From a virus (taxonomy: Duplodnaviria; Caudoviricetes): a stretch of DNA of 64,000 nucleotides. The position numbers were made by a program, and so were the translations under genes. Within the stretch, counting starts at the first letter, position 1; each line of letters starts with the position of its first letter. The DNA is taken from positions 1 through 64,000 of IMG/VR virus record IMGVR_UViG_3300005077_000712; one strand, 5' to 3'. Below are positions 32,663 to 38,776 of the stretch, one piece after another. The notes beneath the pieces were generated by a model. It was not told the DNA's origin. It made no database searches and worked only from the letters and a program-made list of their open reading frames with translations.

Positions 32663-32715
32663 TTGTAAGTTCCTTTTAAAAAGATTATACGCACTTCTTA
32701 TAATTACTGTTATGG

Positions 32716-32931
32716 CTAATTGCCTTTTAACTTCTCCAATCGCTGAATCATTATCGCTCTGTATTTATTTGCACCTTCAATCGCTCTTACTGTCTTTATG
32801 TTGCAATATGGTAGGTTTGTGCTTCTGTCTGTAAACCACTCATCAACTTCCTGTTCGGTAGGCAACATAGCCATAACATCGGTTATATTCAATACCTTGC
32901 TTTCGTCTTGTTTTTTAGTTTTGTTTTTCAT
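32716..32931 (-). CDS. Cassette ORF, hypothetical
   Basis: N-terminus VLNITDVM is encoded by an attC arm. Confidence 0.65.
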   Translation of the reverse strand: MKNKTKKQDESKVLNITDVMAMLPTEQEVDEWFTDRSTNLPYCNIKTVRAIEGANKYRAIMIQRLEKLKGN

Positions 32932-33002
32932 ATCAAGTTTTTTTTATTATTCAAAATTTGTGTTTCAAAATCGGCACTAAATATAGCCGAGAAACGTTAG
33001 GC
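32871..33002 (-). repeat. attC-like site with the next ORF start in its loop
   Basis: ccataac-atcggttatatt...aatatagccga-gaaac-gttaggc. Confidence 0.75.
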
Positions 33003-33266
33003 GACATGCAACCTTAATCTATACATAATATCTATAAATTTGACAAGATTTTCCGTGCTTAAAAACTTAATCGGAATTTCTCCAGCATCATACATTTTTA
33101 CTATTTCCCGCACGTCTCCTAACACGGCATTTGAGTCCGCTTCGCACATTGCCTCAATTATTACATCAGCTAAAAATCCGAACACTTTCGGCGGTATTTC
33201 CTGAATGTTACCATCACCGTCATTTGCAAAATTTTTTATTATATTTAATAACTTTTCTCTATACAT
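32997..33266 (-). CDS. Cassette ORF, hypothetical
   Basis: Stop inside GCCTAAC. Confidence 0.65.
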   Translation of the reverse strand: MYREKLLNIIKNFANDGDGNIQEIPPKVFGFLADVIIEAMCEADSNAVLGDVREIVKMYDAGEIPIKFLSTENLVKFIDIMYRLRLHVA

Positions 33267-33318
33267 AACTTTCTTCTGTTAATTCGGCAACGTCTCAAAT
33301 GCCGGGTAATGTTGTACG

Positions 33319-33600
33319 TCATTTGAGCTTTGCCCACTTTGTAATATTCTTAAACGGCTCAAACCGTGAATTATCAAAACAATACATTCCTGCACACAAA
33401 TAAACCACTGGTCCACCCTCATCACATACCCATGCTTCAACGGTAAACTTTGACATCGCACATCCACCAATTCCCCCTCTCGGACCAGCTGTAGACCCGA
33501 ATGTTTCTGGATAAGCATAATAATCTAAATCCATATACTCGACTTTTCGATCCTTAAGTATATCAATAACTTCTTGCGGTGGTTTGTTTTGATAATTCAC
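33319..33600 (-). CDS. Cassette ORF, conserved phage hypothetical
   Basis: YPETFGSTAGPRGGIGG motif; GTG start after AGGAG. Confidence 0.7.
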   Translation of the reverse strand: MNYQNKPPQEVIDILKDRKVEYMDLDYYAYPETFGSTAGPRGGIGGCAMSKFTVEAWVCDEGGPVVYLCAGMYCFDNSRFEPFKNITKWAKLK

Positions 33601-33645
33601 GGCCTTTCTCCTTTCATGTATTTTATTCTGTGACGCTCAAACGAC

Positions 33646-33726
33646 GCACAACACTCGCTAAACGCTTCGCTTCGCTCGGCCTTCGGCACATGGCTTCGCC
33701 ACGTCGTTTAGCTCTGCATGTTGTAC
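33646..33726 (-). repeat. attC site
   Basis: gcacaac...ctaaac...gtttag...gttgtac with R and L boxes. Confidence 0.85.
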
Positions 33727-33739
33727 GAAAGACGCACGA

Positions 33740-33943
33740 CTAATACTCTATTGGTTCATCCTTGTATTCATAAGTGTAATTACCGGTTCCCGTCCCGCTC
33801 GTTGTTAATACGCTATGAAGTGCCTCATGCCCGCAAATAACACATCGCTTGAATGACGAGTCTCCGTGCCATACATGTTCAGGTTCTACGGTTGACCCAC
33901 ATTTTTTACACTTATAACTTTGTTCAATCTTTATATACATAAA
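33740..33943 (-). CDS. Cassette ORF, Zn-ribbon protein
   Basis: MYIKIEQSYKCKKC...CVICGH; GGAGG SD. Confidence 0.7.
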   Translation of the reverse strand, partial: FMYIKIEQSYKCKKCGSTVEPEHVWHGDSSFKRCVICGHEALHSVLTTSGTGTGNYTYEYKDEPIEY

Positions 33944-33964
33944 TCCTCCTTTCGTGCGTCCTTC

Positions 33965-34055
33965 GTACAACAAAGCGTGAAACGAAAAACGACTTTATTT
34001 TATTTACAACACTTTTACTATTCAGCGTTCTTCGTTTACGCTTGAATAGTTAGCG
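33965..34055 (-). repeat. attC site
   Basis: gtacaac-aaagcgt(g)aaacgaa...ttcgtttacgctt-gaata-gttagcg with an extrahelical base. Confidence 0.8.
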
Positions 34056-34279
34056 AACATTGCCATCGACTTGTTGCTTGTACCAATCCGCTCCCTCGCA
34101 AAATATGTGCATAGAAATACTTTCCTCAACGCCATATCTTTTGGCCAGCCACTGATATTTTTAATACGTTGTTTATTCAAATCCCCCGCATAATGGTCGG
34201 GCAACGATCCGCTAACACGGCGTAAAACGAAAGCCGTCTTTATTATCTCAATTATCTTTCTGTACCATGTAGTTTTCAT
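34022..34279 (-). CDS. Cassette ORF, hypothetical
   Basis: GGAG SD; spans attC arms. Confidence 0.45.
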   Translation of the reverse strand: MKTTWYRKIIEIIKTAFVLRRVSGSLPDHYAGDLNKQRIKNISGWPKDMALRKVFLCTYFARERIGTSNKSMAMFANYSSVNEER

Positions 34280-34334
34280 CTTGATTAAACTCCTTGTATT
34301 ATCGGCCTATCGTTTACGCCGGAATAGTTAGGCG
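34210..34334 (-). repeat. attC-like site with ORF start in its loop
   Basis: cgctaac-acggcgtaaaacga...tcgtttacgccgg-aata-gttaggc. Confidence 0.75.
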
Positions 34335-34534
34335 ACATTGCCAAACCCTTTTATGTATTTAATACATTCTTGGAATCCAGCCACAAAATATACTTGTTCC
34401 TTTTCTGATATATTTAGTCCCTCGCTTATTCTTACTGCAATACCACCTGCTTCATAAATATTTGGCAACGGTCGCCTAACAGGGCGTATATTCAATTTCG
34501 CCCTTATTGCGTTAGTAGTATTACTTGACCTCAT
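34328..34534 (-). CDS. Cassette ORF, hypothetical
   Basis: Stop inside GCCTAAC; AGGGGA SD. Confidence 0.6.
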   Translation of the reverse strand: MRSSNTTNAIRAKLNIRPVRRPLPNIYEAGGIAVRISEGLNISEKEQVYFVAGFQECIKYIKGFGNVA

Positions 34535-34600
34535 AAACTTATCCCTTTAATATGATTATTTCTATCATGCGAAACTAAACATACGCCCCATCAGTTATAT
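34474..34600 (-). repeat. attC-like site with ORF start in its loop
   Basis: gcctaac-agggcgtat...atacgccc-catca-gttatat. Confidence 0.7.
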
Positions 34601-34608
34601 GACATGGC

Positions 34609-35148
34609 TTAACTCTGGCTCGCCTTCCGTGGCTCGCTTTTTATTATCCTATCAAAACATATTTGTTTCGGCAATAAACCTCTACAAATATAAACACTCG
34701 AAAACGGAGGATTCAAACTCGGTTTTTGTTCTGTATAATCTTTAAAATATGCCACCCTTTTATTAAAATAAAGTATTTCAAAATCATTTGCTTCAAACAT
34801 AGAAAATCTTTTTTCAGACTCGAATAATCCTACAACTCCAACAAGCATAGCAAATTTTTTATTCAACTTAAACAGTCTATCAAATACTTCGCCTTTTAAA
34901 CTATAAGGAGGATTTGAAATAATAACATCACAATCAATATCAATATTAAAAAAATCATCACCGTTTGAAATATGCGTATTTTTTACGGCATTGCCATTAT
35001 TCTTTAGCATCTTTACAAAGTTACTTTCGTTCGTATCAAATGGACACCATACTGCTAAATTTGAATTTACATATTTCAATAAAGGCTCAATAGCATATTC
35101 AGGTGTATAAAATTCATCCTGTTTTTTTGTAATTAAGTCAAGTTTCAT
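34609..35148 (-). CDS. Cassette ORF, adenine methyltransferase-like protein
   Basis: DEFYTP, WCPFD, DFF and ISNPPYS motifs; start MKLD after GGAG. Confidence 0.75.
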   Translation of the reverse strand: MKLDLITKKQDEFYTPEYAIEPLLKYVNSNLAVWCPFDTNESNFVKMLKNNGNAVKNTHISNGDDFFNIDIDCDVIISNPPYSLKGEVFDRLFKLNKKFAMLVGVVGLFESEKRFSMFEANDFEILYFNKRVAYFKDYTEQKPSLNPPFSSVYICRGLLPKQICFDRIIKSEPRKASQS

Positions 35149-35215
35149 AAACTCTCCATACGTGTTCGGCATCCTGCCTCACACTAAATATATTTTTTGT
35201 TACAATCGCCACGTC

Positions 35216-35281
35216 ATATAACAACGGGTAAGCGTTCGCTTCACACACCCTTCGGGTGTCGCTTACCCTGTTCAGTTGTAC
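35216..35281 (-). repeat. attC site
   Basis: atataac-aacgggtaagcg...cgcttaccc(t)gtt-ca-gttgtac. Confidence 0.85.
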
Positions 35282-35291
35282 GAAAGACGGC

Positions 35292-35498
35292 TTAACCCCC
35301 ACCATAAACATAAAAACCTTCTGCATCTTTAATCTCTCTCGGCTCAAGCGATAAATCAGCATGGGTATATCCCAACTTTTCAAGAACAAGTTTTCTCGCT
35401 TGCTCTGAATTTTCAGCATATGCGAAGGCTATGCCTGCTGTATAATCTCTTAATACATTTTCCCATACATATAATTTTAATTTACTTATTGCTTCCAT
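35292..35498 (-). CDS. Cassette ORF, hypothetical
   Basis: KLYVWENVL...AFAYAE...YGGG; followed by an attC. Confidence 0.7.
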   Translation of the reverse strand: MEAISKLKLYVWENVLRDYTAGIAFAYAENSEQARKLVLEKLGYTHADLSLEPREIKDAEGFYVYGGG

Positions 35499-35556
35499 AC
35501 TAAATTACCTCACTTTATATTTTACTTTCAATGCGTATTCTCATAGCCTTGAATAG

Positions 35557-35826
35557 TTAGCTAAAATGCTCGCTAACTTCTGCCATTTCAATATCATATT
35601 CTAATTCCATTTGCTTAGCTCCATACCCATTAGACATCCAGTCTATAATATCTGTAAGTTTAGAAACTCTTTCTCGCAATGCTCGCACTTCAGCTAACAC
35701 GGTGTCATGCGTCATTGATTCCCTACATTTATTACAATATATAATTCCTATTGGATCACCATAATCTTTTCCACATTTAACATAATCGCTATGACAATAT
35801 CTTAATAAGGCACCACATCCCTTCAT
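35557..35826 (-). CDS. Cassette ORF, hypothetical
   Basis: GGGAGG SD; stop inside AGCTAAC. Confidence 0.65.
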   Translation of the reverse strand: MKGCGALLRYCHSDYVKCGKDYGDPIGIIYCNKCRESMTHDTVLAEVRALRERVSKLTDIIDWMSNGYGAKQMELEYDIEMAEVSEHFS

Positions 35827-35883
35827 AATATCCTCCCTTGAATATCAACGACGCATACGCAGTCTCAGTTAGGCGAAAGACGG

Positions 35884-36120
35884 CTAAACCTTTCGTATTT
35901 CAAAATTTATTATCGAATATTTAAAATAAGCAATAAACAGTCTATATAATGCTATTATCAATAATTCTGTACTATAGATTCTCCACCCCGGATCGCCAAT
36001 GTTTACACATAAAACTTGATATTTCCATCCATAACTTTCTCCTTTTAGTCGCCGTCCTTCGCCCAACACTCGGCAAACGCCATGAGTACACAGCGTCTGC
36101 CTCAGCATGTTAGCAGCCAT
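35884..36120 (-). CDS. Cassette ORF, hypothetical (start uncertain)
   Basis: N-terminal part runs through an attC. Confidence 0.35.
   Translation of the reverse strand: MAANMLRQTLCTHGVCRVLGEGRRLKGESYGWKYQVLCVNIGDPGWRIYSTELLIIALYRLFIAYFKYSIINFEIRKV
36061..36115 (-). repeat. attC site
   Basis: gcccaac-actcggcaaacgc...gcgtctgcctcagcat-gttagca. Confidence 0.75.
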
Positions 36121-36352
36121 TTAAGACAAAAAACTTTTTAGCCTTATCTCTGAACTTGCCAACTCCAGATAATCTTACCATAAAATCATCACCTATGGCT
36201 TCAATAAACTCACCTTCTTTTAAGTGTGGTTCATCTCCAATCGCACTTTCATAAATCGGATAGAATAAACGGCTGCTAACAGCAGGTATATTCAATGCCG
36301 AGCATCGAGTGTAATCAGAGTTTAGTTTTTCAATCAAGCCTTGTGTTGTCAT
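36110..36352 (-). CDS. Cassette ORF, hypothetical
   Basis: ALNIPAVSS is encoded by an attC arm; stop inside TGCTAAC. Confidence 0.65.
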   Translation of the reverse strand: MTTQGLIEKLNSDYTRCSALNIPAVSSRLFYPIYESAIGDEPHLKEGEFIEAIGDDFMVRLSGVGKFRDKAKKFFVLNGC

Positions 36353-36413
36353 ATAATTTTGTATTTCAAATTTGGCACTAAATATACCTGCTCATACGCT
36401 TAAAAAGTTAGCA
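36274..36413 (-). repeat. attC-like site with ORF start in its loop
   Basis: tgctaac-agcaggtatatt...aatatacctgct...gttagca; same family as 32871. Confidence 0.75.
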
Positions 36414-36424
36414 GAAATAACCGC

Positions 36425-36602
36425 CTAATCTTTAGTGATAATCTTATATGTATAGTAATCACTATCTTTAAACATATTCATTCTATTCTTATATAAATCT
36501 TTTAAAGATTGCTCAACTCTTTCTTTTGCTTTCTTGCCACGAAATATTTTATATAATTTATATTCATCAAATGGATTTACTCGTCTTAATATTCTATACT
36601 CC
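36425..36602 (-). CDS. Cassette ORF, hypothetical
   Basis: MEYRILRR start after GGAGGGAG. Confidence 0.55.
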
Positions 36603-36633
36603 ATATACTCCCTCCTTTGATGGCGGTTACATC

Positions 36634-36687
36634 CGCTAACATCGAGCAAGCGACATTGAAACGATCACCTACCTTTTTTAGTTAGAC
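36634..36687 (-). repeat. attC-like site, degenerate copy of 36893
   Basis: cgctaac-atcgagcaagcgacattgaaacgatcacctacc...tta-gttagac. Confidence 0.65.
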
Positions 36688-36691
36688 GTAA

Positions 36692-36858
36692 TTATTCGCC
36701 AACTTTTTCTGATGATTTAGCTCCACCGCACATCCCCATTATCATTGATAATTGTCCTATCATCTGCAATCCAAGTTCTTCATGACTTTTACTTTTCGGT
36801 ATGCTATTTATTGCACACTCGCATAACTCAATTATTTTATCATATACATCATCTTTCA
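36692..36858 (-). CDS. Cassette ORF, hypothetical
   Basis: MKDDVYDK start after GGAGG. Confidence 0.55.
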
Positions 36859-36892
36859 TTTTAATCCTCCTGTAATAATGGCGAATAACTAC

Positions 36893-36946
36893 GCCTAACA
36901 TCGGGCAAGCGACATTAAAACGGTCGCCTGCTCTGTTTAGTTAGGC
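36893..36946 (-). repeat. attC site
   Basis: gcctaac-atcgggcaagcgac-attaaaacg-gtcgcctgctctg-ttta-gttaggc. Confidence 0.8.
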
Positions 36947-37156
36947 GAAACGGCTTAAAAATATTTCCATCATTTTGACCGCCTCTTCTCTATCACTGTT
37001 TTTTTCTCCCTCTGATAAATATTTATATTCTGTTTTCATTTGTCTTTTCCATCTATCAACTGCCCACTTCGGAATAACTAAATTTTTCTCTCCGTCTGGT
37101 TCTGCTAATGTTGGCTCAAGATAAATCTCATAGCACTTGCTAAATAAATACTGCAT
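36941..37156 (-). CDS. Cassette ORF, conserved phage hypothetical
   Basis: IPKWAVDRWKRQMKTEY...EKNSDREEA; stop inside GCCTAAC. Confidence 0.7.
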   Translation of the reverse strand: MQYLFSKCYEIYLEPTLAEPDGEKNLVIPKWAVDRWKRQMKTEYKYLSEGEKNSDREEAVKMMEIFLSRFA

Positions 37157-37165
37157 CCATCCAGA

Positions 37166-37418
37166 CTATTGACTATGCGCAAATGCGGCCAGCTCCTCTT
37201 TTAGTTCAGCCGTATCGCATAACACAGCATTAGACGAAAGAGGCTTTTCGCATTCTACCGCTTTATCCAGTATCCTATTCAATGGATCAGAATAATCTTT
37301 ATTTTTTAAATACTCTATATCTTTCTCCATCCTTTCTATTCTCTCTGTTAACGCTCGCACTTCAGCTAACAGAGATATTTGATATAATTTTAAAATAGAT
37401 TCTCTCAAATCATCCATA
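37166..37418 (-). CDS. Cassette ORF, hypothetical
   Basis: MDDLRES start after GAGGAGGG. Confidence 0.55.
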
Positions 37419-37460
37419 TATTCCCTCCTCAAATTTTCGCATATTCTCAATATGTTGTAC
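37364..37460 (-). repeat. Degenerate attC-like site
   Basis: agctaac...gttgtacgaaagac; weak arms. Confidence 0.5.
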
Positions 37461-37671
37461 GAAAGACTGCTCAATCTTTTTTATATTTTAATTCTAACTC
37501 TTTATAAAAACTACATATTGCACAACAATCTAACCCACAATCACAAAATGTTCGTTTGCCAGTTTTAATATATTCTTCTTCAATCCAATCTTGATAACAA
37601 GCCCAACATTCTCCGTGTCCACAACCGCATCTCTTTTCCATTAGCTAACCCCCTTCTATTCGTTGCCCTTC

Positions 37672-37739
37672 GTACAACACTTGCTAAATGCCACTTCGCT
37701 ACATGGCTTTGATACGTTGTTTAGCTCTGCATGTTGTGC
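37672..37739 (-). repeat. attC site, same family as 33646
   Basis: gtacaac-acttgctaaa...gtttagctctgcat-gttgtgc. Confidence 0.85.
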
Positions 37740-37750
37740 GAAATTGCGCC

Positions 37751-38125
37751 TCACTCACTGCTCTTAAAATCTTCTTCTGGACTAAACCAATCGTTGTTAA
37801 CGATATGACCTATCGCATGCACCTTGCTATGCTCGCACTTTACCCGTATTGTTTTACCCTTCAACTGACTCCATTTTGAAACTTCCGCTATCTGCATTAC
37901 CCTGAAAATAAAATGTCCCGCTACAGACTCTAACTTGTAGTGCGTAAAGCTTTTCGGCAAATATAGCGCATACCCTCCAAACCCCTGACCGATCCCGCCA
38001 TAATTAAGATTCACCCACGCAGACAGACACCCGTGGTCATCATTTGTAATTTCCGCTGACTCAATAATCGCATTTCTGATTTCTAATTCCATTTCTAATC
38101 TCCTATTAATTAAGCAACGCCTCAA
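37751..38125 (-). CDS. Cassette ORF, conserved phage hypothetical
   Basis: DHGCLSAW...QGFGGYAL; followed by an attC; true start probably MELEIR. Confidence 0.7.
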   Translation of the reverse strand: MRRCLINRRLEMELEIRNAIIESAEITNDDHGCLSAWVNLNYGGIGQGFGGYALYLPKSFTHYKLESVAGHFIFRVMQIAEVSKWSQLKGKTIRVKCEHSKVHAIGHIVNNDWFSPEEDFKSSE

Positions 38126-38137
38126 ATACCATCTCTG

Positions 38138-38776
38138 TTAGTCGGCATTGCTTAAATATTTTTCTAATTCTTTTTCAAGTGCTATTACAATTCTCTCCAA
38201 ACTTGCTCTGGTATGCTCCCTGAAATTATCTTCTCGTAACAGTATTTTCATTGTATCAAGTTGAGTCATAAGATGGATAAAATCAACTTGTTCTATCAAA
38301 ACTTTGCCTAATAAAGAATCATGAGTTTCAGCTTTCGGCAAATTTTGAGGAATTACTTTATTTATTAAATCTTCTATTCGCTGACATAGTTCTGGTCTAT
38401 TATCAGCATAATCTTCCAAAAGTCCATTTACAATAATTTTTGATACTTCTCTTGAATCTATTTTTTTATCCCCTCTTCTATACTCGTTTAAAAAATCATA
38501 GACATCTGACATTGATTCAAACTGTTTATGATAATCTTTAAATTTTTCATTAAAAGAATTTAATTGATCTTTTTCACATTGTTTTTCAAATTCAGGATCT
38601 TCAAGTTTTTTAGTATAAAAATCTGTTAGTCCACTACATATACCACATCCACCGTCACCATATTTCCCATGTTCGCACCAACCATTATCTGTTGATAAAT
38701 CTTTTTCCTCTTGCATTGCTTTATCTATTCCTTTTTGAACTTTAGATTTATCATATTTTAAATCTTCTATTTTCAT
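38138..38776 (-). CDS. Hypothetical protein
   Basis: 212 aa; stop inside GACTAAC. Confidence 0.65.
   Translation of the reverse strand: MKIEDLKYDKSKVQKGIDKAMQEEKDLSTDNGWCEHGKYGDGGCGICSGLTDFYTKKLEDPEFEKQCEKDQLNSFNEKFKDYHKQFESMSDVYDFLNEYRRGDKKIDSREVSKIIVNGLLEDYADNRPELCQRIEDLINKVIPQNLPKAETHDSLLGKVLIEQVDFIHLMTQLDTMKILLREDNFREHTRASLERIVIALEKELEKYLSNAD

Follow-up and report, generated by a model that had tools for sequence, protein, structure and literature searches.

Where does a mobile gene cassette begin and end, and what supplies the start of its gene, when the start codon lies inside the very structure that would serve as the recombination site? The question is raised by the viral record IMGVR_UViG_3300005077_000712 (Duplodnaviria; Caudoviricetes), an 89-kb contig estimated by CheckV to be 41% complete. 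Its first 64 kb, i.e. the window of 64,000 nucleotides considered here, contain a row of about 15 imperfect inverted repeats, with cores of the form xxxxAAC...GTTxxxx, that lie between small open reading frames (ORFs). An initial annotation had singled out four of these repeats and proposed that the start codon of the next gene lies between the arms, that the distal arm is therefore translated, and that recombination at its GTT would swap N-termini and translation signals between cassettes. On the basis of the anatomy of the sites, the boundaries of the cassettes, the conservation of the ORFs through the arms and the asymmetry between the two DNA strands, all of which are matters of observation, the row is probably an integron-type cassette array without integrase (a cluster of attC sites lacking integron-integrases, CALIN) in mirror orientation. 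Its long hairpins would carry the start of their own gene, and each cassette would move as hairpin, start and gene together.

Fifteen core pairs fit the RYYYAAC/GTTRRRY consensus of attC sites, many of them in textbook form (GCCTAAC/GTTAGGC) and some in a relaxed one (GTACAAC, ATATAAC). Seven sites are short (54-91 nt) and the rest long (97-201 nt), the latter apparently because their loop contains the start and the first codons of their own gene. In the fold of the short site S13, a 7-bp R box, an asymmetric internal loop of 8/5 nt and a 9-bp L stem follow one another as in attC sites, and the four long hairpins of the initial annotation (S1, S5, S6 and S11; table 1) fold in the same manner. 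All four are indeed present where they had been placed, with the start codon in the large loop and the inner arms paired, the RNA of the coding strand giving folding energies of -22.7, -27.6, -43.4 and -38.1 kcal/mol and z-scores relative to shuffled sequences of -3.1, -2.1, -7.6 and -4.4 for S1, S5, S6 and S11, respectively. The hairpin is under selection: 6 out of 17 base pairs show compensatory changes in an alignment of 10 alpha-type copies from seven contigs, in which two G.U pairs are invariant. Furthermore, the coding strand folds better than its complement at 10 of 13 sites, and this asymmetry comes from G.T/G.U pairs. The homologous short hairpins at 36634-36687 and 36893-36946 differ by three G-to-A changes (plus strand), which give G.U/G.T pairs on the coding strand, the only strand on which pairing is kept.

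Table 1. Features of the cassette array and its borders (positions in the window; aa, amino acids).
Feature	Position	Strand	Remarks
Whole cassette array	32709-38144	-	16 cassettes; every gene runs on the minus strand
Left array end, GTTATGG core	32709-32715	+	preceding flank resembles other array ends, closest L122
71-aa ORF of last cassette (S1)	32716-32931	-	variable 19-aa hairpin-encoded leader and conserved 52-aa core
Hairpin S1, alpha type, 132 nt	32871-33002	-	ATG 32931 in loop; unit also in L130-L135
Long hairpin S2, 201 nt	33117-33317	-	encloses first 48 codons of ORF 32997-33266; distal arm encodes AVLGDV
Short hairpin S3	33646-33726	-	example of the seven short sites
Other six short sites	33965-34055, 35216-35281, 36061-36115, 36634-36687, 36893-36946, 37672-37739		
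85-aa ORF starting in S5	34022-34279	-	no homologue; runs 28 nt beyond its own cassette boundary
Hairpin S5, beta1 type, 124 nt	34210-34333	-	AAGGAG and ATG 34279 in loop
68-aa ORF starting in S6	34328-34534	-	stop TAA in boundary core
Hairpin S6, alpha type, 127 nt	34474-34600	-	ATG 34534 in loop
DNA adenine methyltransferase cassette gene	34609-35148	-	NPPY motif
Long hairpin S9, 183 nt	35692-35874	-	encloses zinc-ribbon-like N-terminal part of ORF 35557-35826; distal core encodes VLAEV
80-aa ORF starting in S11	36110-36352	-	conserved in L125, L126 and L129
Hairpin S11, alpha type, 140 nt	36274-36413	-	ATG 36352 in loop
Extra in-ORF core	37217-37223	-	GCATAAC on plus strand; pairs with boundary at 36940
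Site S14	37364-37460	-	core pair present, arms pair weakly; holds start 37417 of ORF 37166-37417
Right array end, GTTAGTC core	38138-38144	+	overlaps stop of backbone gene 38138-38776; hairpin truncated there

Which of the two cores bounds the cassette was read from related arrays, which were retrieved from viral contigs and metagenomes through short conserved motifs (L021, L122-L124 and L125-L129); a 14-mer scan of viral contigs returned mostly chance matches, L021 and L047 alone looking related. Followed through one of the 35 clusters homologous to its protein, the S1 cassette recurs with 93-95% identity at six loci that represent five different neighbourhoods, always as hairpin plus ORF, with breakpoints at the upstream and the terminal xxxxAA|C cores. 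The S11 cassette is found in L125, L126 and L129 at 91-93% identity, also with hairpin and ORF together; its homology begins right after the upstream AAC core, the first four bases of which differ in each contig, and stops at the terminal core, just past the stop of the ORF. Thus, the hairpin and its own gene constitute the cassette, because homology breaks at the other core, beside the stop of the previous gene. In L123, a single unit is present, with the order core, gene segment, hairpin, core. Since a cassette reads hairpin and then gene on the coding strand, with its crossover at the 5' core of the hairpin, it has the bottom-strand polarity of integrons, its gene being mirrored with respect to canonical cassettes.

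The cassette ends carry a further trace of how the units may have moved. Positions 1-4 of the cores match the other end of the same cassette (46/56) more often than the core across the hairpin (29/56), and the 13 nt outside the cores are complementary across the cassette (7.9/13 as opposed to 4.1/13 in controls), according to a test of end complementarity that replaced custom hairpin scans, which were too noisy in AT-rich DNA. The complementarity of the ends is the signature of units that are cut within the hairpin and pass through a circular form. These junctions also bear on an explanation that dispenses with site-specific recombination altogether, in which the hairpins act at the level of RNA (as platforms for translation, sites of processing or stabilizers) and the units are shuffled by phage homologous recombination between repeated motifs, similarly to the PeSL (promoter-early-stem-loop) elements of T4-type phages. 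Such an origin would agree with the absence of a recombinase from every contig searched, with the stronger folding of the transcribed strand, its conserved G.U pairs and the start codons in loops, and with the precedent, in T4-type phages, of shuffling through repeated promoter and stem-loop motifs. It is nevertheless improbable: at each junction of the S1 cassette in its five unrelated contexts just the 3-nt AAC is shared, so that no homology is left on which homologous recombination could act; the cassette ends are complementary to each other instead of being identical to their neighbours, which points to a circular intermediate cut in the hairpin; the cores fit the attC consensus; and promoter-like sites are not enriched (25 versus 20.5 expected, s.d. 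4.8), none of them recurring in the hairpins.

Among the 16 cassettes, eight have a gene that starts inside the hairpin, seven have one that starts 31-74 nt downstream of it, and one is without a gene. At all seven short sites the downstream gene has its own GGAG-type Shine-Dalgarno (SD) sequence. At the four starts of the initial annotation, which had assumed an SD sequence between the arms throughout, it is clear only at S5 (AAGGAG, 9 nt before the ATG) and weak at S6, while S1 and S11 have none. The peptides that had been read from the distal arms (VLNITDVM, VSGS and ALNIPAVSS) are correct translations, and those that had been seen to recur inside other ORFs (AVLGDV, TVLAEVRA and SLLAEVRA) turn out to be the distal arms of three further long hairpins, namely S2, S9 and S14. 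The cassette at 35869-36109 contains no ORF of at least 30 aa with a plausible start, but a good SD sequence followed by a 9-codon ORF, and it may be gene-less or decayed.

Initiation within the hairpin and translation of the distal arm are supported by homologues for three of the four flagged ORFs. The S11 ORF has no Met codon after the arm until residue 58 and no alternative start; in comparisons between contigs, substitutions fall at third codon positions in 13/19 and 10/12 cases after the arm, and in 3/5 and 4/6 cases in the part encoded by the hairpin. The S1 family comprises 35 protein clusters, in which a highly conserved 52-aa core is preceded by a very variable leader of 16-21 aa; in every one of the approximately 30 full-length clusters this leader continues the frame of an ATG. 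Both Met codons at the core have disappeared from one lineage, and others are without the hairpin yet keep the leader. The homologue of the S6 ORF is of equal length, with a variable leader. In beta1 hairpins, the type to which S5 belongs, the SD sequence and the ATG are kept in three contigs (the window, L021 and L122), and in L122 a 25-aa leader ORF that starts in the beta1 hairpin stops on the ATGA of the methyltransferase start.

These data leave very little room for the in-loop starts being annotation artefacts, i.e. for true starts downstream of the arm and upstream frames that are open by chance. Two Met codons right at the core of the S1 ORF, an in-frame TTG after the core of the S6 ORF and the absence of an SD sequence at S1 and S11 could be taken that way, as could the S5 ORF. 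However, the S11 frame is conserved, with its third-position bias, in spite of having no start after the arm before residue 58, at least 8 divergent leaders of the S1 family, and likewise 5 independent hairpins of the alpha type, keep an open frame with its ATG, and the S1-family lineage mentioned above has no downstream Met codons from which to start. As to the S5 ORF of the window, it is doubtful that it is a real protein, because no homologue was found for it and it overruns its cassette.

In the light of these observations, the array would work as follows. On the coding strand, each attC-like hairpin stands 5' of the gene with which it travels. Behind a short hairpin, the gene simply has a ribosome-binding site of its own, whereas the variable loop of a long hairpin holds the start of translation together with the initial 15-60 codons of the gene that belongs to the cassette. 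Ribosomes would initiate in the single-stranded, A-rich loop and read through the distal arm and the core into the gene, for which the TAA in the boundary core often serves as the stop. The proximal core (read on the coding strand as xxxxAA|C, corresponding to integron bottom-strand polarity) would be the place of the main crossover, by the action of a tyrosine recombinase presumably supplied in trans, and the cassette would be transferred as hairpin, start and gene with no exchange of the N-terminus. Initiation in the loop may also keep the cassette translatable whatever lies upstream, and the distal core within the gene is a second, slower exchange point, seen in the LAEVRA family.

In the latter family, the C-terminal 47 residues of the S9 ORF follow at least six unrelated N-terminal parts in a search of the whole library, and DNA identity between the genes, which is at background level up to the in-ORF GTT, climbs to 85-100% precisely there and drops again at the terminal core. 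An 18-nt query for the junction brought up further small ORFs in a metagenome scan, the same 20-nt junction preceding at least eight different C-terminal parts; at least eight unrelated middles are framed by this common junction and by a C-terminal VSEHFS, which is encoded by the terminal half-site. Within the window, the distal core of S14 together with the following 13 nt forms the same 20-nt junction as that of S9, and this junction is all that the composite cassette 36941-37454, which contains two ORFs, shares with the LAEVRA family. The in-gene core is thus an exchange point over longer times in this family; the cause could be either homologous recombination confined to the 20-nt junction or site-specific recombination on the opposite strand. 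The zinc-ribbon-like N-terminal part of ORF 35557-35826 is found again at the C-terminus of an unrelated ORF of 100 aa (L152 1081-1203), whose last 40 residues it forms and which lies in an ordinary phage operon without hairpins.

The LAEVRA genes speak for the in-gene GTT being the working crossover, with an array that mainly fuses hairpin-encoded N-termini and translation signals to downstream gene bodies. L127 and L128, where a common leader is followed by different gene bodies, and the reading frame across the core, which is fixed within each hairpin type, point in the same direction. For the array at large this is unlikely, in that copies of the S1 and S11 cassettes from nine other contigs run colinearly through the in-gene GTT and break at the other core, positions 1-4 of the cores follow the cassette as defined by that other core, and the leaders at the four flagged sites (18-26 aa) are hydrophilic, poorly conserved and not domains. 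With breakpoints at the upstream core, the normal reaction would not swap N-termini. The swapping foreseen in the initial annotation is therefore not supported, as a routine process, for the S1 and S11 copies and survives, on a longer time scale, for the LAEVRA family, the only one seen with front and back halves re-paired at the in-gene site; similarly, chimerism at the GTT, which the annotation had named as its own test, is absent from the former and present in the latter.

A more far-reaching possibility, to be regarded as tentative, is that the translated halves of the sites, QNLPKADAYS-LLAEVRA in front and VSEHFS-stop at the rear, serve as fixed linkers that maintain the frame, and that recombination at either core, one per DNA strand, combinatorially joins a front module held in the loop to a back module held in the gene body. 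If true, phages would possess a natural site-specific system for shuffling protein modules.

Several findings weigh against the array being of integron type with hairpin and gene as its mobile unit. From contig to contig, the type of hairpin varies independently of the ends of the gene segment: in L127 and L128, a hairpin that is approximately 95% identical is followed by unrelated genes, and methyltransferase cassettes share their ends yet carry different hairpins. Because hairpins and genes are re-paired in these cases, the unit of hairpin plus gene is not always stable. The folds have no clear bulged G or T, the extrahelical bases typical of attC sites, and the 13-nt outer complementarity present here is, to our knowledge, not a feature of classical attC sites. 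The lack of a homologue for the S5 ORF, already mentioned, belongs here as well. No tyrosine, serine or Y1 recombinase was detected in the 89-kb contig (of which the estimated completeness, 41%, is to be borne in mind), and four related contigs that are 93-100% complete gave no Phage_integrase match above cut-off; there was none at all in L021, L126 and L047, and in L125 (100% complete) a single sub-threshold match of 13.8 bits lies approximately 10 kb from the array. Neither intI nor attI, which adjoin the array in a complete integron, was found; the enzyme, and with it the name 'integron-type', is deduced solely from the sites.

The methyltransferase-type cassettes (window 34594-35281, L021 4536-4940, L122 reverse strand 706-100, L123 and L124) have 45-60 nt in common at both ends of the gene segment, with different genes and hairpin types in between; that of L021 carries an unrelated 95-aa ORF instead, and that of L124 looks like a decayed copy. 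Other models were considered for the repeats and dropped: alternating sites of the pdif/Xer-module type, as the arm sequences are not conserved as protein-binding sites; miniature inverted-repeat transposable element (MITE) insertion, as the complementarity spans the gene segment and not an insertion; and the IS200/IS605 hairpin, as the HUH transposase is absent. Genes of the IS605-type OrfB/TnpB (Cas12f-like) adjoin cassette genes in two unrelated metagenome contigs (L145 1-1083 and L151 838-1341).

The array is placed in an early or middle operon of a large phage, where it forms an island (32.7-38.15 kb) with a GC content of 31-45%, compared with 23-28% in the backbone and flanks. Its neighbours are a YggL-like gene on one side and an RNA ligase gene on the other; a relative of the latter led only to an unrelated phage of 48% GC without an array. 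The ORFs of the island are mostly unmatched in Pfam, the adenine methyltransferase being above cut-off and two further matches weak and sub-threshold. GenBank phages gave no match to the island by megablast or to the S11 and S1 ORFs by tblastn, and a search against Rfam returned nothing at E values up to 1. Relatives of the S9 or S2 ORFs did not emerge from the viral-contig search, and a sample of 401 Bacteroidota genomes yielded no match to the S1 protein. A scan of bacterial genomes gave two contigs of metagenome-assembled genomes only, one with a chance match in a large gene and the other a small phage-like contig.

At the left border, the stretch of backbone that leads up to the first GTTAT core is similar among the array ends of unrelated phages (..ctGTTAT), as judged from the flanks at 32690-32715 of the window, at 2285-2300 of L122, at 4517-4540 of L021 and in L123 and L124; in the window, the minus strand of this flank contains TATAAT. 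The shared flank may correspond to an attI-like site or a favoured point of insertion, or else to the promoter of the next backbone gene. At the right border, the final codons and the stop of the AT-rich backbone gene 38138-38776 lie inside the first hairpin, which is truncated, in its core and outer arm of higher GC content, and the array seems to have replaced the original end of this gene.

With canonical integron cassettes the array has in common the RYYYAAC/GTTRRRY cores, the succession of R box, unpaired spacer, L stem and variable loop, the AAC/GTT crossover, the match between the first bases of a cassette and its own distal core, and the occurrence of cassettes in unrelated contexts. 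In the canonical cassette, however, the gene precedes attC on the top strand, whereas here the hairpin precedes the gene on the coding strand; the lack of intI and attI, the complementarity of approximately 13 nt beyond the R box and the coding sequence that runs through the site also set the array apart. Shufflons, in which the Rci recombinase inverts segments between inverted sfx sites and thereby changes a protein C-terminus, likewise have recombination sites in coding sequence that join different protein ends in frame, but they encode their own recombinase, while here 16 cassettes lie on one strand, no recombinase was found and no inversion is seen.

A start inside the recombination site has a functional counterpart in ORF-11 and ORF-18 of attI1 and in the short ORFs of attC sites, which relieve stem-loop blocks by translational coupling (reviewed in PMC8876359): in both settings ribosomes are driven across the site into the next gene, and the leader ORF of L122 follows the same logic. 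The short ORF of the ORF-11/ORF-18 type is separate and belongs to attI or to the upstream cassette, whereas here it is usually the cassette's own gene that starts in the site and moves along with it. PeSL, in the parts of the two papers drawn on here (PMC2839356, PMC4122927), are also repeated stem-loops that bound small accessory genes in hyperplastic regions and accompany modular shuffling; an early promoter is part of them and homologous recombination is their presumed mode of action, while the present sites show no promoter enrichment, breakpoints at 3-nt cores without flanking homology, and self-complementary cassette ends.

The closest relatives are the phage CALINs of Qi et al. 2023 (PMC9892861), which, in the sections of that work drawn on here, are integrase-less attC clusters found in 17 phages, defined by a minimum of two predicted sites and including methyltransferase cassettes, with attC sites that IntI1 recombines. 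They agree with the present array in the rows of attC-type hairpins between small genes (there of virulent phages), in the lack of intI, in the methyltransferase cassettes and in the GTTRRRY motifs at the array ends. Those sections describe neither gene starts within the sites nor a mirrored orientation; here, half of the approximately 15 sites enclose a gene start, and all genes lie on the strand of bottom-strand polarity. The literature search brought up no description of genes that start inside their own mirrored attC. The array is thus a large example of a phage CALIN variant, and it adds evidence on the main boundary core and on in-frame module exchange in one family.

In the usual description, an integron cassette is a promoterless gene followed by a non-coding site. 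Here, the site precedes the gene and gives it its start codon and first residues, so that each cassette would bring its own translation start wherever it is inserted. This would explain how phages can stack, and yet express, many foreign mini-genes, including a methyltransferase, in one operon. The same cassettes circulate among many uncultured phages and the recombinase was not found, which suggests that the enzyme comes from the host or from another element. Finally, the LAEVRA family shows that sequence derived from a site can turn into a constant protein linker that joins exchangeable halves, and it makes site-specific shuffling of protein modules directly testable.

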